Shown: in pieces, positions 1,742 through 17,507 of the stretch
Layout of the letters: each line of letters begins with the position of its first letter
Numbering within the stretch: the stretch's first letter is position 1
Virus record (IMG/VR): IMGVR_UViG_2778261064_000025
DNA: 18,722 nucleotides
Reading direction: 5' to 3' (one strand)
DNA from: a virus
Lineage: Duplodnaviria; Heunggongvirae; Uroviricota; Caudoviricetes
The notes under the pieces: model-generated
What the model was told of the DNA's origin: nothing
The model's database searches: none
Seen by the model: only the letters and a program-made list of their open reading frames with translations
Made by a program: the position numbers and the translations under genes

Positions 1742-2764
1742 TCAATCGCTCCCTTTCCGCCCTTCAGCTACAGGGTCGTTGTCGGCGATAACAAAACCTA
1801 AGTCCTGAGAGAATCTCTCTCGTGGGAATCCTTTAGCAGGTAAACCCATTGAATCATATCCACATCCGGGAACATTTGGTTTAGAGTCAATAAGGTCTGC
1901 AATTTGCCGAAGCCATGTTGATCCCGGACCAAGTCGTTTAACTAAGTACCAGATAATACAGATCGCGCTAAAAATCCTCTCGCAACTCTCTGGATGGAGA
2001 TTAAGTCCGTCAAAGTATTCATTATCCGGTACTGGAACTCGGGGATGCTTTCTATTCCATATTCTGGAATGGTGAGCGCAACGATTCCTTATGAGATTAA
2101 GGCACTTCAACCATTTTGCAAATGTCTGCTTATTATCAATGCCAAAACGACGTATAATTTTCCCCTGCATATGACCATTAAGCATCGCATAATATTTAGA
2201 CATCTGACCAAAATCCCAGGTCTCCACCGCCACCCAAAATGGAATCTCCTTGCCTTGGCTTCGATGCCATTCAATACAGTCATCTCTGCTTTCGTCTAAT
2301 TTTACTTTTTGCTTATACACCCAATGCTCGAAGGCAGATGAGAATTTTGGATTAATGTATTTTGATGACATGTAGGCAAGTGGATCATTGCGACCAACCT
2401 CATGCGCGATGACTGAACGAACATGAATCTCTATTCTTTCGATAGCATCAATCATCAAAAGACGCAGTTTTTTGTCAAAAAGATATAGATCGTACGTCTT
2501 CTCGAAACTGGTACCAGCAAGAAATCGGTCTGTTCTGTACGAAAGACCTTTATCTGTTGTCGCAATAATTCTTGATGGGTACCAAAAACCTGACAATCGA
2601 TAATATCCAACCTGCAACAGCTTACGTATCGCACGATTTCGATCATTGATAATCATGCCACGTTCAAGTAGCAATCCTAGCAATTCGTGATAGTCCTTAT
2701 GAGGCTTTGCGGCAATCATAGTGGCAAAACAAAAGATAATAAAAGGCCCGACCGTGAAACTCAC
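1742..2764 (-). CDS. Abi_2 family (AbiD/AbiF-like) abortive-infection protein; start uncertain (GTG at 2764 or ATG at 2719)
   Basis: ORF track 340 aa. Contains KPHKDYHELLGLLLERGMII...YYRLSGFWYP and RNRCAHHSRIWNR, matching the Abi_2 family signature as I recall it. Size fits AbiD/F proteins. Confidence 0.7.
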   Translation of the reverse strand: MSFTVGPFIIFCFATMIAAKPHKDYHELLGLLLERGMIINDRNRAIRKLLQVGYYRLSGFWYPSRIIATTDKGLSYRTDRFLAGTSFEKTYDLYLFDKKLRLLMIDAIERIEIHVRSVIAHEVGRNDPLAYMSSKYINPKFSSAFEHWVYKQKVKLDESRDDCIEWHRSQGKEIPFWVAVETWDFGQMSKYYAMLNGHMQGKIIRRFGIDNKQTFAKWLKCLNLIRNRCAHHSRIWNRKHPRVPVPDNEYFDGLNLHPESCERIFSAICIIWYLVKRLGPGSTWLRQIADLIDSKPNVPGCGYDSMGLPAKGFPRERFSQDLGFVIADNDPVAEGRKGSD

Positions 2765-2828
2765 ATGCCTGAAATCGGCGGCGGAGAAACAGAGGATCGG
2801 GCTCGGTTGCCTGTAACTCTATCCGAAG

Positions 2829-2931
2829 TTATCCACATGTCAATGCACAGTTACTTAGGAAACTAACATAGGTACTATCACCACTCACGAAAAACCACTA
2901 TATGTGGTTTTTATTCATATCGTTATCCACT
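2829..2931. promoter_or_regulatory. Two DnaA-box-like 9-mers (TTATCCACA 2829-2837; TTATCCACT 2923-2931) flanking a hairpin AAAACCAC-tatat-GTGGTTTT (2893-2913)
   Basis: First 9-mer matches the DnaA-box consensus TTATCCACA exactly, second has one mismatch. The hairpin is followed by a T-run. All read from the sequence; function inferred. Confidence 0.3.
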
Positions 2932-3096
2932 ACAGGCTGTGTCAATAACTTTTACCTATTAATTGGGTAATTTCTACATTTTCCTATGCTGGCTAGTTTC
3001 TCTACTGAAAAGTTGGCACTCCTTAATCGCTTTTCGGTTAATACTATCGGTTTTCATATTGCCAGCAGCATACGCCATCCGATAATTTCTATGCTA

Positions 3097-3475
3097 CGCG
3101 CGCGTACTTGTCGCAAAATATCAGGCAAAGGCCAGATTCAGAAAGTCGTGATAACCACCAGCACAACATGAGAGGTCATGTAACGCGATTTATCACACCA
3201 GATACATGTGATTAGTGTACCCGCATAAAACATCGTCATAGCGCGTCCTGTGCGCATATACGCCGATAATCAACACATCACCACCACTCTGACTTATGTA
3301 GAGAACAGTTTTATGGTACTCCCCTCCATCGTGCGCGTACTGGTCGGACGTAGTTGCAAAATTTTTTGCAACTGATACCCCTCGCGCGCGTACTTGTCTC
3401 GAAATTGGTGTTTTGCTGTGGCAGTGATATCAGAAAAATCTTCCTGTTTCACATAAAGCGGATATGCGCGTACTG
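3097..3475. repeat. Four direct copies of GCGCGTACT (3100-3108, 3333-3341, 3386-3394, 3466-3474); copies 1 and 3 extend to ~20 nt (CGCGCGCGTACTTGTC.C.AAAT)
   Basis: Read from the sequence. The motif falls in different codon phases of the overlapping ORFs, so it is conserved at DNA level rather than protein level. Confidence 0.55.
3353..3372. repeat. 20-bp AT-rich palindrome GTTGCAAAA-TT-TTTTGCAAC
   Basis: Perfect inverted repeat read from the sequence, lying between repeat copies 2 and 3. Confidence 0.5.
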
Positions 3476-3589
3476 TAACGGCCCCATCAACTGGGAGCGG
3501 ATTTGAAATCCCGACCCAAGCTATGTACCAAATGCCATGTCTTGGATATATGATGATTGCCATTCTAAACAACGCTAAAGGGGGTTGGT

Positions 3590-4204
3590 GTGAGCAGAAA
3601 AGATACTAAAGAATTGCTAACTATCTGCATGGTGTACTTTTCAATTTATTTTTGTGCATACATGATAGTCCCAGATGAGTTTGAACATGGCAGTATTATT
3701 TATTCCATAACATTCTATTTTTTAGAGCTAACACCAATTTTGGCTATCCTTTTGGCAATACATATTTATTTTTCCTTAAAAAAAGAATCGACTAATTGGG
3801 AGAAGGTATGGAGAGACAGAGGATTTCTAACATCACCTAAAGATGATGCATATGAGAGTGATTTTTCTGACTTTATAACAAACTACTACTCCAGCGAACA
3901 ATTCAAAAATAGACTGTCTGATGTTTGGGAAACAGCAATGTATTCCATAGGGATTATATTATTGATACTTACTGGTATTGCTCAATATGTTTTTAACATT
4001 GACTTATCATTAAATCCTGAAAATTTAATATCGCCATTGATTTTTGGTGAGATATTGATCTTCTCATTCGGAATTTTCTTGAGTGTTGTTCTCTGCTCAT
4101 TATGCAAGCTACTGACTAACAGGTATCCAGGTGAAGCAAGGAGAGCAAGAAAGGCAAATCCATATTATCTTTTATTTCCTAATGGAGACAGCAGAGATAT
4201 CTAA
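3590..4204 (+). CDS. AT-rich multi-pass membrane protein (204 aa), unknown function
   Basis: ORF track. GTG start preceded by GGGGG about 6 nt upstream. Several hydrophobic helices (e.g. LLTICMVYFSIYFCAYMIV, LTPILAILLAIHIYF, AMYSIGIILLILTGIAQYVF, ILIFSFGIFLSVVLCSLC). Visibly lower GC than flanking genes. Convergent with the 701-aa gene. Confidence 0.6.
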   Translation: MSRKDTKELLTICMVYFSIYFCAYMIVPDEFEHGSIIYSITFYFLELTPILAILLAIHIYFSLKKESTNWEKVWRDRGFLTSPKDDAYESDFSDFITNYYSSEQFKNRLSDVWETAMYSIGIILLILTGIAQYVFNIDLSLNPENLISPLIFGEILIFSFGIFLSVVLCSLCKLLTNRYPGEARRARKANPYYLLFPNGDSRDI

Positions 4205-4223
4205 GCCATCCATGGCTAACCAG

Positions 4224-6329
4224 TTATTGAGCTTCTTTTTGTGATGCCTGTGCGACTCTGGTGAGCGATTGTGTGACCGTACTGATCGCTCTGTCATATG
4301 CTGTGCTACCTTTTGGCGTATTTGCCAGACGTAACAAGGCATTTCGTATAACAGGGCTTTCGTATGCCTTCGCTGCTCCGCCTACGGCACCAGCAGCAGG
4401 AACAACAAACGCAGCCGTTTTTAGCATCCCCGCTAATACTGCTGCGTTTATGATGCCACCACCAACTAACAAACCATAAAGCTGCTGACCATTTAAGTTT
4501 TGAACGTTCGCTTTTGCCGCGTGTCTTGTATCGTTGAGGTATTTAATAACGCCGTCCAGTTCCTTTCCATGTACGCCTTTAAAGAAAGTTGCTGATTGCT
4601 TCCTGTTCCGGTGTAACGCATTAATAAACTTCTCAACACTGATATTTCCAGACGGATCAGTCGCCTTATCTACAGCATTCTGAACTATGGCTGCTCGTGC
4701 GTTTTGCCTACCATTGTCATCCAGAAGCCTGTAAAGCTGAGAACGTTCTGATGGGTTTTGGCTAAAAACGAGTTTTGTTACATCCTCAGGCGTGGCCTTG
4801 CCGCTGGCTATTGCCTTTTGAACGCGCGTTCTTCCCATCATGTCATTAAATTTAGACCATGAGCGATCAACCCTTGCCATATTAATGGCTTCGTCTGCTC
4901 CAAGATTTTTGGCTACGGCTTTTTTCATATCCGCCGTATATGCCTTGTAGATAATATCGCTGGCTTTCTGGAGCGTATCTTTATCAACAGTGTCAGATGA
5001 CGCCATAAATCGCTTTCGAAGATCGGTTCTGTTTTCCCTCGCCAGACGCAGGTCATTTGGTCCGCTGGTGATATCGTCTTTAAATTGCTGCAAGACTTTT
5101 ACCGCGGCTCTATCCTGAGATTTGCCCGGGCGGCTTAACACGGCAATCTGATTGTCGATAGCTTTTACCGTGTTTGAGAGATCGACAGGGGTATCCCCCA
5201 TAGCGTCAATTATGCGGTTATATCGCTTTCCTGCTGCCTCAATGAATTTTTGTTGCCCTTTAGTCGCAGATTCATAAAGCTGTTTATCAGAAATGCCACC
5301 CAGACCATCGCTAAATGTTCTGACTAAATTTTCTCGTGCTTGTTGTTGATTCAGCCGATTCTTACCGGTTCCAAAAAAAGGAACTCTTTCGCCTAATGTC
5401 TGAGCCTGACTCTGCATAAAGGTTTTATCTTTTAGCATGTCACTGGTCATTAACGGCAGATTTCTTTCCGATGCAAAGTCGACAGCAGCCTTTGCTTCAG
5501 GCGACATATCACCACGAACAGCCCTCGAAACCGCACTCGCTGTATTTTCCAGCCCCTTACCAATACCACCAATGCCAGCAGAAATTACCGTTTGTAACGG
5601 ATCAATATCTTCTCCACCAGCAAGGCTAGTGGCTCCCTGTAGTGCTAAATCTGTAGCTGCTGATTTTCCTATGGCACCAAGCACCGTTCCAGCCCTGCCC
5701 GCTGGTGTAAACGCCAGCGCATTAGCCAGAAACGATGCCACGTCTTGCGGCGATAAACCCGGCTTGTTCAGAGCATAATCACCGGATGGCAGGGAAACGA
5801 TAGTGTTACCCTTCTCATCCTGCCTTAATTTCGCTCCCATGCTCTGAAGAATCTTTTCCTGAGATGCGTCAGAGCCGAAAAGTTGAGACCATCGAGCTTT
5901 TAGAGCATCCATGCTGAGTGAGGTTAACTCTGGGGCAAGGTCGACATTTTGCAGTCTCTCCATCTCTGGAGTCATTCGGCTTTCGCCTGTTATAGCATCG
6001 CGCATCGCAGCCCCAAGACTGGCTCCCTGTTCTGCTGAACGCTCAAGCCCCTCTCTTTGCTGAGTAGCTAACTTTGCATACCCTGACGCAAGAGAATTAT
6101 CAGATGATGTATGTTGAATATTTTGAGTTGCTGATTGGGATCGGTCTATTTCATTCGTTGATGGTAGTGGATAGGCAGCATAAAAAGCCTGCTTAGCCTG
6201 CTCTACACTTTCTCCGGCTTGCGGGGCCACGACTTCATTGAAGTATTGCTCCTGAGCCTGCGCTTTTTGTTCTGGTGCTAACGCCTGATACTGTGGAGAG
6301 GCGATAACATCTTTCCATGCTTTAGCCAT
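4224..6329 (-). CDS. Putative DNA-ejection (injection) protein, P22 gp16-like by size and position (701 aa)
   Basis: ORF track. Last gene of a four-gene translationally coupled operon (TAATG overlap at 6329). Ala/Gln-rich with a Gly-rich hydrophobic segment near the C-terminus (LYGLLVGGGIINAAVLAGML...). Assignment is by analogy to the P22 14-7-20-16 order; no search run. Confidence 0.5.
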   Translation of the reverse strand: MAKAWKDVIASPQYQALAPEQKAQAQEQYFNEVVAPQAGESVEQAKQAFYAAYPLPSTNEIDRSQSATQNIQHTSSDNSLASGYAKLATQQREGLERSAEQGASLGAAMRDAITGESRMTPEMERLQNVDLAPELTSLSMDALKARWSQLFGSDASQEKILQSMGAKLRQDEKGNTIVSLPSGDYALNKPGLSPQDVASFLANALAFTPAGRAGTVLGAIGKSAATDLALQGATSLAGGEDIDPLQTVISAGIGGIGKGLENTASAVSRAVRGDMSPEAKAAVDFASERNLPLMTSDMLKDKTFMQSQAQTLGERVPFFGTGKNRLNQQQARENLVRTFSDGLGGISDKQLYESATKGQQKFIEAAGKRYNRIIDAMGDTPVDLSNTVKAIDNQIAVLSRPGKSQDRAAVKVLQQFKDDITSGPNDLRLARENRTDLRKRFMASSDTVDKDTLQKASDIIYKAYTADMKKAVAKNLGADEAINMARVDRSWSKFNDMMGRTRVQKAIASGKATPEDVTKLVFSQNPSERSQLYRLLDDNGRQNARAAIVQNAVDKATDPSGNISVEKFINALHRNRKQSATFFKGVHGKELDGVIKYLNDTRHAAKANVQNLNGQQLYGLLVGGGIINAAVLAGMLKTAAFVVPAAGAVGGAAKAYESPVIRNALLRLANTPKGSTAYDRAISTVTQSLTRVAQASQKEAQ

Positions 6330-7750
6330 TAATCACCCCATAGTGAAGAAAAGTTACTGCTGGCTGCTGGCTGTGATACCTGCTCAGATTGCGGCAATGT
6401 CTGCGACGAAGAAGAAGTTCCTCTGTCAACTGCTGAAATAACCCGCAAAGCATCATAAGCTCGACCAGAAGCAGCTTTCAGCGAATTGAACTGGTTTTCC
6501 ATCTTCCGGCGCTTGGTATCAATGGTTTTTGTGGAATCACCAGGCTGAGGGAAATACATTTGATAATATTTGGACATTTCAGCTGGTACGATGGCTGCCC
6601 CTGTTTCCTGACGGAGTATTGCCATTATTGCGTCATTAGCATTAACAACGTATTGCTGTTCTGTTGGGCTGAGCGTTAAGTTAGCCAGCGTCCCATTACC
6701 CAAAGCATTATTAATGATCGCCACTCGCTGTGGGCTAAGCTGGTCTTTCAGTGTATCTATTGAATCAAGAGCATCCCTAACCCTGTATGCAAATCCAGCA
6801 GCTTTTTTAGCCCCTTCTGGCGACTTTTCCATGATCTTTTGGGCTGTTGGCAAAGCTATTGGACGAAACCCATCTCCAGATATTGGCTGGTTTAGTTTTC
6901 CCTGCTCTTCACTTCCGTCTGTGTAGTATTTTGTGACAGTGCCATCATCGTTTTCTCTAACACTCATTAATTTTTTGGCGTTTGTATTAATTCCAGCCGC
7001 TGCCGCAAATGCCGCCGCCCCCTCTGGATCCGCCTTTAACATTTGAGCGTACTGATTGTAATTCTGCATTGCTGCTGTTGGTGCATATGCTGACGTTAAC
7101 GCATTTGCTCGGCTAATATCCTGCCCTCTCGCCTGAAGTGCTTCGCCAGCCTGATTGCTGCGGATTGTTTCTGCCAACTTGCCACGCTCAATATCCCGAC
7201 CTTCCATTTGATCTTTGATATCGAAATACTTCTCATGACCGAGAGAAAACAGTGCCATACTACCAGCAAGCCGCTGGAACCCCTGTGGATCATTAACATG
7301 CATTTCGGCAACAGACTCAGGAGAAATTCCCAAGCGACGCATTTCATCTTCGTTATCTGCTATGAATTTTCCAAATGCCCCAGTTCCGAGCGAAGATGCG
7401 ATTTGAGCACTAGTCGCAAGATGACCAATAGAATTTCTCTGGTCGTCATCAATAAAGCCCATCCCTTTCTGAACGCTTTCAAATTCTTCTGGATACTCAG
7501 AAATAAGACTGCGCATTTTGTTTCTGTCTCCAGACTCAAAAGCCCCGGCATATGCTTTCTGAAACTCTGCTTTACGCTGTTGTTGACGTGCCGGCTGATT
7601 AATCTCAGCAACGCCTCTTAGCCCCTGTAGCGCCATTAAACCTACGTTTGGCTGCTGCTGATACTGCACAGGCTGAGGAACGGAAGAACGAGGAGCATTA
7701 TCATTTTGCGGTGCCATGCTAGGCAGCCCGCCAAGTTGCCATGTCGCCAT
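6329..7750 (-). CDS. Putative DNA-ejection protein, P22 gp20-like by size and position (473 aa)
   Basis: ORF track. TAATG start/stop overlaps at both ends. 473 aa compared with ~471 aa for P22 gp20 as I recall it. Gln-rich N-terminus. Confidence 0.5.
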   Translation of the reverse strand: MATWQLGGLPSMAPQNDNAPRSSVPQPVQYQQQPNVGLMALQGLRGVAEINQPARQQQRKAEFQKAYAGAFESGDRNKMRSLISEYPEEFESVQKGMGFIDDDQRNSIGHLATSAQIASSLGTGAFGKFIADNEDEMRRLGISPESVAEMHVNDPQGFQRLAGSMALFSLGHEKYFDIKDQMEGRDIERGKLAETIRSNQAGEALQARGQDISRANALTSAYAPTAAMQNYNQYAQMLKADPEGAAAFAAAAGINTNAKKLMSVRENDDGTVTKYYTDGSEEQGKLNQPISGDGFRPIALPTAQKIMEKSPEGAKKAAGFAYRVRDALDSIDTLKDQLSPQRVAIINNALGNGTLANLTLSPTEQQYVVNANDAIMAILRQETGAAIVPAEMSKYYQMYFPQPGDSTKTIDTKRRKMENQFNSLKAASGRAYDALRVISAVDRGTSSSSQTLPQSEQVSQPAASSNFSSLWGD

Positions 7751-8427
7751 TAGAATCCAAGCCCCCCAACAAGACCAATAAGCCCACCACCAATAGCGCC
7801 GGCCGCAGTTCCTATTCCAGGAACAACGGAACCAAGTTGCGCACCCGCTAAAGCGCCTGATGCTGCCCCACCAATACCACGCGCAAGACTGGATGGCTGC
7901 TGCGCCTGACCTGCACGAATAGCGCCAAGCCCCTGCAAGAGTTGTCCGGTATTATTGGCGTAGTTTTGCCCTGCCGTTGCCTGCCCTGATGCCGCATTCA
8001 TCCCGACATTTAGCAGGTTTCCATAATTTTGCATTTGCCCACTAAGCCAATTGTTATAAAGCATGGGCGCAATGGAAGATAACTGGTTACTGGTAGCTGT
8101 TGAGCCAAGCCCCCCGGTAGCTTCTGCTGAGACAAGGTTCTGATAACGGGCCTGATCTGCCTGTGTTTTATATAAACCAGAACCAAAGAAATCATTCGCG
8201 GCTTTATTCTGCCCTTCCAGAGTCATCAGTCCTTGTAGTTGTTGTAAAGCAGGCAATCCGACTTCTGCATACGGCTTGAGATTATTCATCACCGTATTCC
8301 ACTGCTCGCGCTGCAAATCAATTGCCTGCTGCTGGGCCTTCGCCTGAGCTTTAGAGGCACCACCATCACCGCCTTTTTCGTATACGGCACGATTGAGATG
8401 TTTATGAGCTATATGGGTAATTAACAT
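7750..8427 (-). CDS. Putative DNA-ejection protein, P22 gp7-like (225 aa)
   Basis: ORF track. N-terminal ...NRAVYEKGGDGGASKAQAKAQ resembles the P22 gp7 leader region (...PEKGGKGG...) as I recall it. C-terminal Gly-rich hydrophobic tail GIGTAAGAIGGGLIGLVGGLGF. 225 aa compared with 229 aa for gp7. Confidence 0.55.
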   Translation of the reverse strand: MLITHIAHKHLNRAVYEKGGDGGASKAQAKAQQQAIDLQREQWNTVMNNLKPYAEVGLPALQQLQGLMTLEGQNKAANDFFGSGLYKTQADQARYQNLVSAEATGGLGSTATSNQLSSIAPMLYNNWLSGQMQNYGNLLNVGMNAASGQATAGQNYANNTGQLLQGLGAIRAGQAQQPSSLARGIGGAASGALAGAQLGSVVPGIGTAAGAIGGGLIGLVGGLGF

Positions 8428-8882
8428 TCGCTGAATTCCTTATATTGTTGCCGAGTTAACTGATAAAGCGTTACGCCGACGGGTTTACCACATCTGATAT
8501 AAGCATCATCAAGGTGACCAACACGGGTAGCGCCAAGCAAACGGATAATTGCCCGTCCGTATTTCGTGGTGTCAGGAACCATAGTGATGCTGTTAAGGAA
8601 TGGTGAGTTTTCGAGAAGCCATTTGCAGAATAATCGATGTCCTTGCAGTGCATATTCACCACGGAATCCGGGGTCGTACACCGCATGGCATTCAACAACG
8701 CTATGCCAGAAGTTACGCACTTCATGAACGCCAGCCAGCACTAATCCTTCGTAGATGCCGAGATATACCGCATCAGGCTTGATGTAGTACGTGTGCCCCG
8801 GCTCAACAATATTTTCGGTATTGCCTGGCTCGTTAAGAAAGGCCTGTAATCGCACAGGGTTATCAATAAATTTTAGTTCCAT
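8421..8882 (-). CDS. Hypothetical protein (153 aa), position and size consistent with P22 gp14-like / DUF2824-type protein
   Basis: ORF track. First large gene of the operon; its stop overlaps the start of the next gene (ATGTTAA). Family assignment is from memory only. Confidence 0.45.
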   Translation of the reverse strand: MELKFIDNPVRLQAFLNEPGNTENIVEPGHTYYIKPDAVYLGIYEGLVLAGVHEVRNFWHSVVECHAVYDPGFRGEYALQGHRLFCKWLLENSPFLNSITMVPDTTKYGRAIIRLLGATRVGHLDDAYIRCGKPVGVTLYQLTRQQYKEFSEC

Positions 8883-8898
8883 GCGATGCCATCCATTT

Positions 8899-9060
8899 TC
8901 ACATACAGCCTGCCAGCGCCTTATCTATTAACCCTCGTGCAATTTCATGCAGAGTTGGCGCTACTCCAATTCCTGATTTTTTACGCTGCTCTTCCTGAAT
9001 TTTCTTTATCGCTTCCATTTGCTTCTCACTTATCAATACCGGCTTTACTGAAATAGCCAT
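8899..9060 (-). CDS. Small ORF (53 aa) MAISVKPVLISEKQMEAIKKIQEEQRKKSGIGVAPTLHEIARGLIDKALAGCM, possible small DNA-binding protein
   Basis: Hand-translated; below the 60-aa cutoff of the ORF track. ATG at 9058-9060 on the minus strand, preceded by GGGGG (plus-strand CCCCC 9065-9069). Ends 16 nt before the 153-aa gene. Confidence 0.45.
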   Translation of the reverse strand: MAISVKPVLISEKQMEAIKKIQEEQRKKSGIGVAPTLHEIARGLIDKALAGCM

Positions 9061-9073
9061 AACGCCCCCTTAG

Positions 9074-9099
9074 AACTGTATAAAACAACAGTTATTATA
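9074..9099 (-). promoter_or_regulatory. LexA-box-like CTGT-ATAAAACA-ACAG (9076-9091) immediately downstream of a perfect minus-strand -10 TATAAT (9094-9099)
   Basis: Read from the sequence. Matches the CTGT-N8-ACAG SOS-box pattern with an AT-rich spacer. The -35 is weak (TGAATA-like), so the promoter call is tentative. Confidence 0.4.
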
Positions 9100-9155
9100 G
9101 TTTCACAAATCGCAATATTCATCATCGTAATTGCAAAATATGAAACAAATAGCAC

Positions 9156-9187
9156 AAAAAAATGCCACCGCTCAGTAGCTGGTGGCA
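9156..9187 (-). terminator. Rho-independent terminator on the minus strand (stem TGCCACC/GGTGGCA with inner GCT/AGC pairs, followed by a 7-nt U-run)
   Basis: Plus-strand 9156-9187 reads AAAAAAA-TGCCACC-GCTCAGTAGCT-GGTGGCA. On the minus strand this is a hairpin followed by TTTTTTT. Lies downstream of the primase gene and iteron array, upstream of the 9094-9099 promoter. Confidence 0.55.
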
Positions 9188-9508
9188 TCGTTCTGTGTGT
9201 CAGGTTTTGACAGGTTTTTTATGGACTCTAAAAACTATATTTATGGTGTCGCATTACTCTTCACGGCAGGCGCTTTTCAGTTCTGCCCTTGCTTCTGGCT
9301 CCATTGGTAATTTGATTCGCGATCAGCTATGCGGATGGTTTGCTGAACAGGCATAACAACTTCTCAGAGGCTGTTTTCTGAACTACGAAAATTTCGTAGT
9401 GCTCACTTTCAAAAACGTCACGCCCTTGTACACAGGATTTTACGAAAGTCTCGTAAAACACTCTCTGATGCCAGCCAGGTGTTGTGCGCATCAATTCAGT
9501 CACATTGT

Positions 9509-9619
9509 GTTGGTTCAAAATACCGTGTTGTTGGTTCAGTGTTGGTTCAATAAAAAGAATAAAATCCTTATAAAACAATACTCTTTACAAATTGAACCAA
9601 CTGAACCAACTGAACCAAC
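9509..9619. repeat. Iteron array R: GTTGGTTCA at 9509, 9530, 9541 plus TGAACCAAC x3 in tandem (9593-9619); mirror image of array L
   Basis: Counted directly in the sequence. Immediately downstream of the primase-helicase stop (9645). Confidence 0.75.
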
Positions 9620-9644
9620 ACCTTTTCTACGCACATGAAGAAGC

Positions 9645-12404
9645 TCATTCTTCAGATGAGTTATAATCTCCTGGCTGGTAATTGAGTACATAAACGTTTA
9701 TTTGTCGTCCCTGAATACGTGGTGATTTTCTTTGGTATCCACGACCGCTGTTTGGTGGGGTTAGCATCCCGGCTTTTTTCAACACTTCAGCAAACTGTTT
9801 TGCGTTGAAACCACATGCGATCTCCTTTTCAAATGTGGCCGGGAATGTGTAGAAAATCATTGGGCTTTCGTCATGTTCTCCACGCTGACGGTATCCGGCT
9901 AAATCTTTGATGGGCAAATCTGCCGGGCTGTATGGAAATGGTGCAAAACGGCTAAGCCCATAGGCATTAAGAAATGCCTCCGTTTGTTCAATAATCTGCT
10001 GATGCTCTTTGTTACCTGTGCCGAACTCGCGCAACCATGCGTTATAGCTGTGCTGTATCGCATCACGGCATGTCTGAGCATCCCAGCCTGTTACAACCTC
10101 GCCTAACAACAATGCGGCCTCCAGAATGGCAAATCGCGCGGCTACACGGTGAACCTGCTCACCATAATCGGATGGGATCAGGCTTCTCCATCTGCTTTCG
10201 CAGTCGCGAACGGTTTTAATAGCCTGTTGCTGGTGGTCTGCCAGCCATTTAATCCACTCACGCCCGGACGCGCCGTGGTGATGCTGGTAAGCGTCTTTCA
10301 GTGCGTCTGCGTGCTGTTTTCCGTTCTGGTAATCGTGAAAGCGTACTGCTTTACTCAACGGAATATTCAGCAGTCGCACCAGTTGCCCGGCTTTGGTTTT
10401 TCGCCCGGAAGTAGCGATAAATGTTTCTAAATCCATTTCTCCGGTGCTGATTGCCACTGTACGCCAGCGTTTTAGATCCCGGTTTCCACCATCTTTAGCG
10501 CCTTGCAGTTTCCCTACACCGTTAAATAACGCATAGGCAGACTGTGAAACGCTGACAGGATCAGCGCCCTGACCAACTTCATCAAGCGGCATTAGTCCGT
10601 CATTGTGGGCGGCGGCCTCATTTGCCAGCCCCAGCGCGGTTCCGTACCACGTCAGCCGCAGTAAATCAGGGTTGCCGTATAAGCTGCTCGCCACGTTTGC
10701 CGTGGTGGTCTTACCTGCGCTCGACTGCTCATAGAAATGAATGCCGAACCCGTCAGCGCCCACCAGCCCAATCAATGGCGCTGCCAGTGCTGCGCCGATC
10801 CCGGTCATCATTGAATAGTTACCAAAGGCCAGACGCGCCACGTTATCACGCCAGCTTTTCGCGCTCCCTGAGACGGTATATCCGGCTGCGGCTGAGCTTC
10901 TCCCGCTGAACAGCACAGGATTTTCAGGTGTTCCGATGATTTCCCCATCAGGCATGATGTACGCTCCGCATTGCCAGCCAGTGGCATGAGCAACACGCCA
11001 CAATTCACGAGAGCCACTGCGTTGTAGCCAGTCTGCCAGTATTGCTCTGAGGCTGCTTTTGGTCGTGACATTTACCCCACCAGCTTTAAGTGTGCGCCAT
11101 CCTTCACGTTCACCAATATCAGCCAGTGGAATGGCAGCGGTTGTCGGCGTTTCAGAACCAAACGACAGCCAGCGAAGAATGAGATACTGGTCTTTATCGT
11201 CTCTGCCAGTACCGATAACGCTTAACGGAGAACATAACCAGCTTTCGTTATTGATGATTTCTCCACTCTGGCTGTCAGCTCTCGGAGATACCCAATAAAT
11301 ACCATCCTCGCGGCTTTCTATTCTTGGTTTCAGTGGGTCGGTATCCATAACCTTAAAATCGCTTCCCTCAATGGTCTGTGGCTCCTGTTTCACGCCATTA
11401 CCCTGTGGTTGGTACATTGACTTATTGAACGCTTCTGTGGCGCATTTAATGCCGTGTTTTTGGTGGTAATCATTCCAGTCTGCTTTGTGATCTGTCGGGG
11501 GTAATGCCACCCATCCAGAAACAGATAAAGCTGCTTTTTCTGCTGCTATTCTCCCCGTGTTTTGTCTTCCTTCGCTGTGGTCGTTATCCGCAGCAATGAT
11601 GATTTGTGCTGAAGGAAATTTATCCCGCAGTACCTGGGCGACATATAACAGGTTCCCGGCATCAATCGCCGCCACTGTCAGCGCCTCTGGACGAATTAAA
11701 TGGGCAGATAATGCCGTTGCCAGCCCTTCTGCGATTAAGATGCTCTGTGTTGTTTCTGGTGCGTTTATGGCGTGATATGCCCCCCGCTTTGCTGAACCTG
11801 TCAGGAGTCTTTTTTCACCATGTGAGGTAATAGTCTGTGCTGCTGTGACTGCGCCGGATTTATCCACCAGCGCCAGCAACAGAGATCCATCGGGCAACAC
11901 GGGGAATGTAAAATCACCTACCCCTTTCGCAACCAGATAATCAGATTTGCCGTTTACAGCCTTTCTGCGCATGTCATCAAACTGACGGGAAAACGTATCC
12001 CGTCTTTGTTGTTCGTCCTTCTCTGCCCTTTTCAGGCGCTCCTGTTCGCGTCGCTGGCGCTCGGTTTCCAGTTGTTCCCGTTTCTGGCTGGTGGCTTCTG
12101 GTGTTTCCGTTGTCCGGTAATCAATACCCAGAACATCAGCGGCAAGAAGCGCCGCCTCTGTTGTGTCGCAGTTATTTACGCGTTTAATTAAATCCAGCCC
12201 ATCACCAGCGCCGCACTGATTACAGATGAAGCTACCGCGCCCGTTGTCATCGAACCGGAATCGATCTTTGCCCCCACATGCAGGGCAGGGAGCATGACGG
12301 CGCGGAGAGTCAGGGACATTTATGTTCAGGCAGCCCAGCACATGAGGCCAGTTGTTTTCAGACGCACTGATAACCTGACGGATAAGATCAATGTTTCGCA
12401 TCAC
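9645..12404 (-). CDS. Primase-helicase, P4 alpha-like (zinc-binding primase N-terminus + TOPRIM + P-loop NTPase), 919 aa
   Basis: ORF track. N-terminal CPACGG...FICNQCGAG zinc-finger pairs, TOPRIM-like ILIAEGLATALS ... IIIAADNDHSEG, Walker-A-like SSAGKTT in the C-terminal half. Domain order typical of P4 alpha / D5-type island primases. Confidence 0.85.
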   Translation of the reverse strand: MMRNIDLIRQVISASENNWPHVLGCLNINVPDSPRRHAPCPACGGKDRFRFDDNGRGSFICNQCGAGDGLDLIKRVNNCDTTEAALLAADVLGIDYRTTETPEATSQKREQLETERQRREQERLKRAEKDEQQRRDTFSRQFDDMRRKAVNGKSDYLVAKGVGDFTFPVLPDGSLLLALVDKSGAVTAAQTITSHGEKRLLTGSAKRGAYHAINAPETTQSILIAEGLATALSAHLIRPEALTVAAIDAGNLLYVAQVLRDKFPSAQIIIAADNDHSEGRQNTGRIAAEKAALSVSGWVALPPTDHKADWNDYHQKHGIKCATEAFNKSMYQPQGNGVKQEPQTIEGSDFKVMDTDPLKPRIESREDGIYWVSPRADSQSGEIINNESWLCSPLSVIGTGRDDKDQYLILRWLSFGSETPTTAAIPLADIGEREGWRTLKAGGVNVTTKSSLRAILADWLQRSGSRELWRVAHATGWQCGAYIMPDGEIIGTPENPVLFSGRSSAAAGYTVSGSAKSWRDNVARLAFGNYSMMTGIGAALAAPLIGLVGADGFGIHFYEQSSAGKTTTANVASSLYGNPDLLRLTWYGTALGLANEAAAHNDGLMPLDEVGQGADPVSVSQSAYALFNGVGKLQGAKDGGNRDLKRWRTVAISTGEMDLETFIATSGRKTKAGQLVRLLNIPLSKAVRFHDYQNGKQHADALKDAYQHHHGASGREWIKWLADHQQQAIKTVRDCESRWRSLIPSDYGEQVHRVAARFAILEAALLLGEVVTGWDAQTCRDAIQHSYNAWLREFGTGNKEHQQIIEQTEAFLNAYGLSRFAPFPYSPADLPIKDLAGYRQRGEHDESPMIFYTFPATFEKEIACGFNAKQFAEVLKKAGMLTPPNSGRGYQRKSPRIQGRQINVYVLNYQPGDYNSSEE

Positions 12405-14371: not shown

Positions 14372-15431
14372 TGGTTTCCCCCGTTTTTACTGGCATTTCG
14401 CCACCTTCCAGCAGGAAATGAACGTCACGAACGGCGAGATCCAATATCGCGAGTAACGCCTTCAGTCTTTCGTCTCGTGAGGGAGAGTTGCTCACCAGAA
14501 TGTCGTTAATCACTTCTGTCAGTGTGATGATCTGGCTTGTGCGTTCGAGGGGATCCATATGCACATCGTAGGTTTTAATCATGTGCCACCTCCATGCGGA
14601 TACGACCAGCAAAAAAGCAGACGTGATCGCGCACCAGAGAACGGCGAGCATCGCGTTCAGACTCGGCAGCAATATGATGAATTTTGGCGGTAATTGTCGG
14701 GCAATCGCGGCGAACTGCGGCGATAATCCAGATAAATTGCGGTTTTTGGGTAGGGGTAGTAGCCAGCATGTGGCAGCCTCCATTCGATAGCATGTAACGC
14801 TACCACCGGAAACGCCAATTTCGCTGGTGGTAGCCCAGACAGGGTTGGCGTAACCGGCTCGAATGGATACCGGCGCTTCCGAAGAAGCCCCTGCCTGAGC
14901 CACCATTGATTGACAAAGGCGCTGGATTATACACCAACGCCCAAAAAATGGGTGAGTCAGACCTACGACATAAAAAAAGACGCTCGGCGCGTCATATGTC
15001 GCCATTCGATTTACCAGGACGCCAATCCCGGCACCCGTTTTATGAGGTGCCTTATAACCATAAACCGTGTTGCCGCATAACGGCAAGCTCTTTTTTATGG
15101 ACTCCGAAAACTCACTATTGGAAGAACCAGAAGCACAGTACATCGCGCTCATTTCGTTAACGTCACGCGCGTGGACGAAGGTTTTTGTGGAGTCACTACG
15201 CGAGCAGAGAAAGCCATCTACGACCAGAAATTCTCTGGCGCAGCCGCTGACCTTCTCAACGCTAACACCATCGACCGTAATTTCTGACATAGTTAAGGCA
15301 TCCGCTCCTACCACCAGCAAATGATAAACTTTGCTTGTATCTGCTGTATTAATGCCTGACTTTGCTGTCATATTGCTGGATTTTGGCGACATACCAGCCA
15401 GTGAAAATGTCTTCTTCTGGGCGGTTAGCAT
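14364..15431 (-). CDS. Long ORF (355 codons), hypothetical; may instead be two genes, with a separate 72-aa product starting at ATG 14580-14582
   Basis: Continuous stop-free frame of 1068 nt. Start at 15429-15431 preceded by GGAGG and overlapping the DUF4222-like stop (ATGCTAA). A second in-frame ATG at 14580-14582 has its own GGAGG 6-7 nt upstream. The middle section translates to unconvincing sequence. Confidence 0.35.
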
Positions 15432-17202: not shown

Positions 17203-17507
17203 ATAAAAGATAGTCAGATTGTTTTGGTTTGTTTGCTCCACAAGGGTAGAGCTACCCTGCATTTCGGCAGGATCACGCTATTAGGCGTGACATCCAGTAG
17301 TTTTAAAGAACAATTGCGCTTTGTCAGCGCCAAAGCCTGTTAAAGAACATTCCGCTTTTCAGCAGCGTAGAAGGCTCAATACACCTTCGTTTATAAAAGA
17401 GCGATTGCCCTTCTCCAGGGCTAACTGTTAAATAGCAATCCTCTGTGAGTTTTTATCAATCTACTCCCCTATACTTTAGTAAACCTCTGTATACTTGTCC
17501 AGTTGTT

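Follow-up and report, generated by a model that had tools for sequence, protein, structure and literature searches.

EcCIMP1 is a phage-inducible chromosomal island (PICI) of Escherichia coli MP1; the P22-like phage Kapi1 serves as its helper for excision and transduction (Pick, Stadel and Raivio, ISME J 2025, PMC11773190). Induction of Kapi1 by mitomycin C requires recA; alpA, the gene of the island's master regulator, responds to the helper, whereas mitomycin C alone has no effect on it, and genes 017-019 were treated as candidate packaging genes (PMC11773190). More generally, Gram-negative PICIs are described as helper-dependent via AlpA, and alpA is reported not to be SOS-responsive. The term LexA has 0 occurrences in the text of PMC11773190, and a literature search found no report linking LexA to an operon of a Gram-negative PICI. 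In a transcriptome study of MP1 (PMC12922286), some unnamed genes of EcCIMP1 and of a colicin plasmid were elevated in lysogens; the study included no SOS condition. A LexA-regulated operon has been described for a satellite of Staphylococcus aureus, namely operon I of the S. aureus pathogenicity islands (SaPIs), which is located downstream of the satellite replicon according to the passages of PMC3152322 and PMC6092414 that cite Ubeda et al. 2007. The DNA analyzed here, a stretch of 18,722 nucleotides from the Caudoviricetes record IMGVR_UViG_2778261064_000025 (referred to as the window), can be assigned to the EcCIMP1 type and carries a predicted LexA (SOS) box at 9074..9093 on the minus strand, which overlaps the promoter of an operon encoding P22-type DNA-ejection proteins. 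We consider this site to be a genuine LexA operator that represses the promoter, with a probability of roughly 0.7, and the ejection-protein operon is thus probably SOS-inducible via an operator over its predicted transcription start.

The assignment of the window to the EcCIMP1-type, Gram-negative PICIs is based on the annotation of identical E. coli loci, on Pfam and PHROG matches, on the presence of iterons, and on colinearity and identical proteins shared with EcCIMP1. Many E. coli chromosomes match the 1.3 kb around the box at 100% identity. In strain CRE1540, the island is located between yicC and dinD and encodes a tyrosine integrase, an AlpA-like helix-turn-helix protein, an AntA/AntB antirepressor, ash, an icd-like gene, a TOPRIM/DUF927 primase and a protein of 53 amino acids, which are followed by a DUF2824 protein, two ejection proteins, a transglycosylase-domain protein and, further on, a PerC-family regulator. 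An integrase, an AlpA-type regulator, a primase with an adjacent iteron origin, a size of ~15-20 kb and the lack of a capsid/tail module are features of a PICI, and the element shows all of them. EcCIMP1 shares the order int, alpA, antirepressor, icd-like gene, TOPRIM/DUF927 primase, 53-aa open reading frame (ORF), DUF2824 gene and ejection-protein genes; its 53-aa protein is identical to that of the window, as are the box and 154 of 156 nt of the promoter. In contrast, EcCIMP1 is integrated at tRNA-Thr by proA in MP1, whereas the closest relatives of the window are found between yicC and dinD, and its gp16-like gene is a different variant.

A first-pass annotation of the window had described, on the minus strand, a perfect TATAAT directly followed by a LexA-box-like palindrome, a GGGGG motif and the ATG of the 53-aa ORF. 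The -10 hexamer TATAAT was indeed found at 9099-9094 (9094..9099, minus strand), and the predicted 20-bp box AACTGTTGTTTTATACAGTT (9074..9093) follows it; however, two nucleotides (AA, 9093-9092) separate the hexamer from the 16-bp CTGT-N8-ACAG core CTGTTGTTTTATACAG of the box (9091-9076), and the string originally quoted, CTGTATAAAACAACAG, is the plus-strand reading of this site. Downstream of the box are the Shine-Dalgarno-like GGGGG (9065..9069), 4 nt ahead of the ATG, and the ATG itself (9060-9058), so that the minus strand reads TTGCGATTTGTGAAAC TATAAT AA CTGTTGTTTTATACAG TTCTAA GGGGG CGTT ATG. The end of the predicted box is 13-15 nt away from the ATG, and transcription is predicted to start at ~9086-9089, inside the left half of the box. 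TATAAT, TATTAT or TACAAT is found at an equal distance from the box in most of the homologous promoters aligned. A geometry typical of LexA repression had also been claimed. The box shares its 20-bp architecture and the CTGT-N8-ACAG core with chromosomal SOS boxes of E. coli such as the uvrB operator, and like the boxes of yebG, umuD, sulA and dinI it is located at a short distance from the ATG, where it would overlap the predicted core promoter and start. For Salmonella yebG, umuD, sulA, dinI and nlhH, box-to-gene distances of 13-21 bp are listed. The box of the window differs from the chromosomal ones in that it is found on a phage satellite, precedes virion genes for DNA ejection instead of repair genes and is paired with a dyad. 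Upstream of the promoter is an intrinsic terminator (9155..9185, minus strand), which consists of a GC-rich hairpin (stem 9179-9164) and a T-run and has a counterpart at the matching place in most homologous loci. It separates the operon from the upstream primase and origin region, and the operon is therefore transcribed as a unit of its own.

The strength of the box was assessed with a LexA matrix derived from 18 experimentally verified E. coli operators (Table 4 of PMC3009722), using count matrices and a heterology index (HI) in the Berg-von Hippel/Lewis form, both symmetrised and unsymmetrised; the matrix is built on these 18 operators only. A matrix from real operators was needed because the box has 6 mismatches to the idealised 20-mer, and a consensus search allowing up to 3 mismatches returned no site. 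The 20-mer AACTGTATAAAACAACAGTT (9074-9093) has an HI of 7.94 (19.4 bits) with the symmetrised and of 5.14 (22.1 bits) with the unsymmetrised matrix. The 18 proven operators span HI values of 1.8-12.2 with the symmetrised matrix and 2.0-17.0 in a leave-one-out analysis, in which the 20-mer ranks ~11th of 19, in the middle of the range between the lexA/ruvA and uvrD operators; the poor matrix score that would have spoken against the first-pass annotation was not seen. Only 3 of 20 positions differ from the proven uvrB operator AACTGTTTTTTTATCCAGTA, and one of these changes is toward the consensus. According to the exact score distribution, an HI of 7.94 or lower is expected 0.004 times per 18.7 kb at the composition of the window and 0.014 times at 35% GC. 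As a positive control, the dinD operator adjoining the island in the identical E. coli locus (L001) was recovered with an HI of 3.09. The bare CTGT-N8-ACAG pattern is present once in the window, where 0.26 copies are expected, and was found at least once in 42 of 200 shuffled windows (~21%). The bare pattern alone is not significant, while the full 20-mer is. At the level of its sequence, the box falls under the definition of an E. coli-type SOS box, with the CTG and CAG triplets intact.

Conservation of the box was followed in one genome per species (using the DUF2824 protein as query), in metagenomes (using the small protein as query) and in ten further loci taken from protein clusters; the lineages are not independent samples, and the metagenomic loci come without host assignment. 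The scan of species genomes yielded nine loci. The six phage-type loci, in which gp14 follows the tail-needle gene, have no LexA-like site upstream (6/6), and all three island-type loci, in which the small ORF is located upstream, keep CTGT-N8-ACAG directly past the -10 hexamer with differing spacers (TGTTTTAT in Escherichia, ATCGTTAT in Leclercia and ATAAACAT in Buttiauxella). In the metagenomes, 30 loci were found, and the site is present in each of the 28 for which upstream sequence is available (HI 7.9-11.9), 12-26 nt before the position to which the start of the small-ORF match maps. A protein search revealed 266 clusters homologous to the small protein across the Enterobacterales. Canonical boxes were found in a Serratia-type locus (L045, HI 6.4), in Erwiniaceae (L047, HI 7.2), in an E. 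coli variant (L052, HI 7.8) and in Serratia (L051, HI 10.0). Cedecea (L048) and Klebsiella pneumoniae (L049) carry ATGT-N8-CCAG (HI 10-11), Rosenbergiella (L046) carries CTGT-N8-ACAA (HI 8.7), and the most abundant Klebsiella cluster (L043/L044, K. pneumoniae, 2476-2495) and Mixta (L050, 2476-2495) have CTG-N9-CAG, which is one base too short (HI about 18). Over all lineages, which include Escherichia, Leclercia, Buttiauxella, Serratia, Erwiniaceae, Cedecea, Klebsiella and Rosenbergiella, the boxes form 15 distinct variants, of which 8 are canonical and 13 reach an HI of at most 12, all at the same position. In the comparison of the window with Leclercia-type loci, CTGT and TTATACAGT are unchanged, and differences are seen in the left part of the spacer and in the flanks. 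Because these blocks are kept while the adjacent ORF shows saturation at its synonymous sites (26 of 36 differ), the box is under selection. The ACAG to CCAG change is seen in many proven LexA operators, and 2 of 20 positions distinguish the box of L035 from the E. coli dinI operator; judged by such comparisons, the substitutions found are ones that LexA tolerates.

Further LexA-like sites were noticed in the window and in related islands. One of them, CCCTGTATGCAAATCCAGCA (6781-6800, HI 10.6), falls within the coding sequence of the gp20-like protein and is found again in most related loci. Per window, about 0.03-0.08 sites of this kind are expected, and it could be a chance occurrence or an intragenic LexA site. 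A weak CTGG-N8-ACAG site (17485-17504, HI 12.5) is located just past the integrase stop of the window, and strain CRE1540 carries AGCTGTATAGATATACAATG (L001 20731-20750, HI 8.5) 50 nt upstream of the AlpA-like gene; the int-alpA region of EcCIMP1 has no such LexA-like sites. Two variant islands have an extra CTGT-N8-ACAG box by the origin, one upstream of an SSB-like (single-stranded DNA-binding protein) gene (L025 1681-1700, HI 10.4) and one upstream of a small ORF that precedes an SSB gene (L052 399-418, HI 7.4), which recalls the LexA control of chromosomal ssb. In E. coli UPEC129 (L042), the ISL3-family element ISEc53 with a ClbS/DfsB colibactin-resistance-type gene (715-2500) has inserted itself at the LexA box, with homology to the window ending at 9080, and thereby parts the promoter from the small ORF.

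A second conserved element is located next to the box. It is an imperfect dyad, GTTTCATATTTTGCAAT-N13-ATTGCGATTTGTGAAAC, of 47 bp (9100..9146, minus strand), which was recognized by its arms and by alignment across genera. The arms (9100-9116 and 9130-9146) are 17 nt long and 76% complementary; the dyad abuts the -10 hexamer and covers the -35 region with the same spacing across genera, and the blocks TTTCAT..TTGCAAT and TTGCG.TTT.TGAAA are kept. A layout of terminator, dyad with 17-nt arms, -10 hexamer, LexA-like box and small ORF is shared by islands of Enterobacterales. Copies of the dyad arms, which would link the dyad with AlpA-controlled promoters, were sought elsewhere in the window and none were found. 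The dyad is presumably a second operator for some activator or repressor and probably adds a second, island- or helper-specific input.

Several observations weigh against simple LexA control. A consensus sigma-70 promoter scan called no promoter in this region, and the -35 candidate, which the first-pass annotation had rightly called weak, is poor: ATGAAT at 9117..9122 on the minus strand, with a 17-nt spacer, has 3 of 6 matches and is not kept in other lineages. The promoter is inferred from the -10 hexamer and its conservation only, and because of the poor -35 and the negative scan it may need an activator, in which case the loss of LexA alone might not suffice. The spacer of the window, TGTTTTAT, is further from the ATATATAT consensus than those of the best operators. 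Moreover, the normally invariant C is lost in four lineages with ATGT...CCAG (L035, L039, L048 and L049), two loci sharing one box variant read CTGT...ACAA (L038 and L046), and the palindrome of the most abundant Klebsiella cluster and of Mixta is shortened. Since boxes are degenerate or shortened in some lineages, LexA control is not universal in the family, or another protein could read the palindrome; in the Klebsiella and Mixta islands with the short palindrome, LexA control may be lost or altered.

If another protein reads the palindrome, the site might be the operator of an island- or helper-encoded regulator, for example the 53-aa protein acting as an autoregulator, and its likeness to a LexA box would be incidental. 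This would fit the observation that the small ORF and the promoter always travel as a module ahead of differing cargo, and that some lineages keep a palindrome that is poor as a LexA site (ATGT...CCAG, or one base shorter). In a single-sequence AlphaFold2 model of the 53-aa protein, the N-terminus is extended and two helices are present, an arrangement that would fit a ribbon-helix-helix protein; the model is only moderately confident (predicted local distance difference test score 78, predicted TM-score 0.36). However, the protein has no match in Pfam, PHROG or a sequence search of the PDB, its model gave no Foldseek match with E < 7, and hhalign comparisons with manually entered reference sequences of the ribbon-helix-helix proteins Arc, Mnt, CopG, ParD, RelB and CcdA yielded probabilities of 0.1-9.5%, so that none of these approaches supports a ribbon-helix-helix autoregulator or DNA-binding homology. 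The match to LexA is also quantitative (HI 7.9, P about 2e-7 to 7e-7 per position), the variation follows LexA tolerances, and an element-specific regulator would more naturally be expected to use the dyad at 9100-9146. We therefore regard an element-specific reader of the palindrome as unlikely. An equally small chance is given to the possibility that LexA binds the box but plays a minor or vestigial role, with the operon being driven by an activator at the dyad (the island's own AlpA or a factor of the helper) or by transcription running on from the replication module, so that SOS alone would be insufficient. The weak -35 region, the conserved 47-bp dyad at the place where a class II activator would sit and the degenerated box of some lineages point in this direction, as does the behavior of EcCIMP1 and EcCICFT073, in which the helper phage, and not DNA damage as such, triggers the master regulator gene alpA. 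Nevertheless, most lineages have retained the box although their neutral sites are saturated with changes, a strong intrinsic terminator is located directly upstream of the promoter, and a perfect -10 hexamer can support activator-independent transcription. Finally, the palindrome could be a functionless product of chance in an AT-rich region, in which the bare pattern appears in about a fifth of shuffled windows, or the DNA of an RNA hairpin in the 5' leader. Both are very improbable: the full 20-mer score is expected far less than once per window, position and core are kept across genera, which largely refutes chance, and the hairpin is weak (-4.5 kcal/mol, z = -0.42), has its left arm at or before the predicted start and was rejected as a candidate. 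Rfam gave no match in or near the promoter and the box.

As a genuine LexA operator, the box would act in the following way. In the undamaged cell, a LexA dimer would cover roughly -6 to +14 and block open-complex formation or promoter escape. Upon DNA damage, RecA* would trigger the self-cleavage of LexA and the operon would be derepressed just as procapsid building by an SOS-inducible P22-like helper prophage gets under way; the ejection proteins of the island could then be available while helper procapsids assemble, and the dyad over the weak -35 would supply a second input. The E-proteins of P22 are loaded into procapsids. The first-pass annotation had suggested that the box ties the cassette to the same SOS signal that induces helper prophages, and this link is plausible, because Kapi1, the helper of the characterized relative, needs recA for its induction by mitomycin C.

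The operon controlled by this promoter comprises five genes on the minus strand. The first one is the 53-aa ORF (8899..9060), which is annotated by RefSeq in relatives and is identical to WP_001018524.1 of EcCIMP1; with a ratio of non-synonymous to synonymous substitution rates (dN/dS) of 0.03 against Leclercia, it is a real gene under strong purifying selection. It is followed by genes for a DUF2824 protein similar to P22 gp14 (8421..8882; Pfam PF11039, E = 1.5e-61), a P22 gp7-type ejection protein (7750..8427; PF25688, E = 6.6e-73), the start of which overlaps the end of the preceding gene, and a P22 gp20-type ejection protein, Inj_translocase (6329..7750; PF16928, E = 1.8e-57), the start of which overlaps the gp7 stop. 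The last gene (4224..6329) encodes a gp16-like DNA-transfer/transglycosylase protein, which matches PHROG 770 ('DNA transfer protein', E = 1e-161) and PHROG 29864 ('transglycosylase'). Since the starts and stops of these genes overlap or nearly abut, their arrangement indicates one translationally coupled operon. Just past the gp16-like gene, an ORF of 204 amino acids on the plus strand (3590-4204) has a weak match to a SieA-like superinfection-exclusion protein (PHROG 7745, E = 4e-4), an order which recalls 16-sieA of P22, and an ORF of 340 amino acids on the minus strand (1742-2764) matches an abortive-infection family (PHROG 2158, E = 4.5e-56). Both ORFs may be relevant to how EcCIMP1 confers superinfection immunity.

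Upstream of the operon is the replication region of the island. The primase gene (TOPRIM/DUF927) extends over 9645-12404, and replication-origin-like iterons, three plus three inverted GTTGGTTCA repeats with an AT-rich spacer between them (9507..9621), are located just after it. The gap of 585 nt between the primase stop and the ATG is mostly made up of the iteron origin and the terminator; the operon begins about 585 nt past the primase stop and about 400 nt past the origin. Between origin and terminator lies the motif GAGTCCATAAAAAA (9215-9228, minus strand), which is kept and duplicated in Leclercia (L004 ~3640-3700) and might be a packaging or protein-binding site. In the ash/icd-like region, Rfam identified a C4 antisense RNA (14823-14910, minus strand, 79.5 bits) and the Hfq-binding small RNA isrK (14973-15050, minus strand, 67.1 bits), which together correspond to an RNA immunity module of the P1/P7/P4 type inside the island.

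In the loci compared, the promoter and the small ORF are always found downstream of a primase of the DUF927 or DUF5906 type, and genes for SSB, ProQ-like and PerC proteins often accompany them; in L039, L043, L045-L049, L051 and L052, the module is located at positions ~2470-5170 of each locus. The cargo behind the small ORF varies. P22-type ejection proteins of the gp14/7/20/16 group are encoded in the window, L004, L006, L035 and L045; some loci have the full set, and L021, L037 and L045 have gp20 and gp16 only. Tail-length tape-measure proteins are encoded in L039, L047, L048 and L051, a TMP_3 protein followed by a Dit-like protein in L049, SLT-domain internal-virion or lytic-tail proteins in L043 and L052, and a HEAGH-motif protein together with PerC in L026/L032. 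Nearly all of this cargo consists of proteins that phage particles use to pass DNA across the envelope, which suggests a swappable slot for genes of genome-delivery proteins in this satellite family. We tentatively propose, at somewhat less than even odds, that the terminator, the 47-bp dyad, the -10 hexamer, the LexA box and an ORF of 53-61 amino acids form a portable, SOS-gated delivery-protein module at the head of this slot, by which satellites would bring their own helper-matched DNA-injection machinery and sense SOS directly and not via the helper-dependent AlpA circuit. Such a module may serve to bring satellite DNA into cells that exclude injection of the helper type, or it may be the basis of the helper-dependent superinfection immunity of EcCIMP1.

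The closest parallel to this arrangement is operon I of the SaPIs. Both operons are located downstream of a primase and origin and encode proteins that act on the virion of the helper, and direct control by the host LexA, through a signal shared with the helper prophage, is predicted for the window as well. In contrast, there is no sequence homology between the two; operon I carries terS and capsid-size and interference genes, not ejection or tape-measure proteins, and the Pfam and PHROG matches of the window operon, compared with the operon I genes terS, cpmA/B, ppi and ptiA/M, are restricted to P22 ejection-protein families, with no terS or capsid-morphogenesis family among them. The host of the SaPIs is a Gram-positive bacterium with a different LexA motif. 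Because genes and LexA motif differ, the operon of the window is probably a functional analogue of SaPI operon I that arose by convergence, and not a homologue. Other mobile elements also use the host LexA directly to tie a module to SOS: the antirepressors of Gifsy prophages, tum of coliphage 186 and colicin operons are LexA-repressed. At other loci, the endolysin genes Epel1 and Epel2 of prophages of extraintestinal pathogenic E. coli, LexA binds the promoters in electrophoretic mobility shift assays (PMC9621596). Those targets are induction switches, toxins and lysis genes, whereas the box of the window precedes genes for virion proteins that deliver the genome of a satellite.

Among 5,426 complete E. 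coli genomes, 499 carry the promoter region (9030-9215) at 90% identity or more, and a single genome can hold up to three copies. The promoter module is thus common in natural and clinical E. coli isolates. The operator offers a handle on two questions about EcCIMP1, the role of genes 017-019 and the added superinfection immunity against Kapi1. If the box acts as proposed, a direct LexA input would add a second, host-derived trigger to the Gram-negative PICIs and provide a convergent parallel to the LexA-controlled operon I of the staphylococcal SaPIs. Given the abundance of the promoter among E. coli genomes and the related modules across the Enterobacterales, SOS-inducing antibiotics would then switch on ejection or tape-measure proteins of satellites in many clinical strains.

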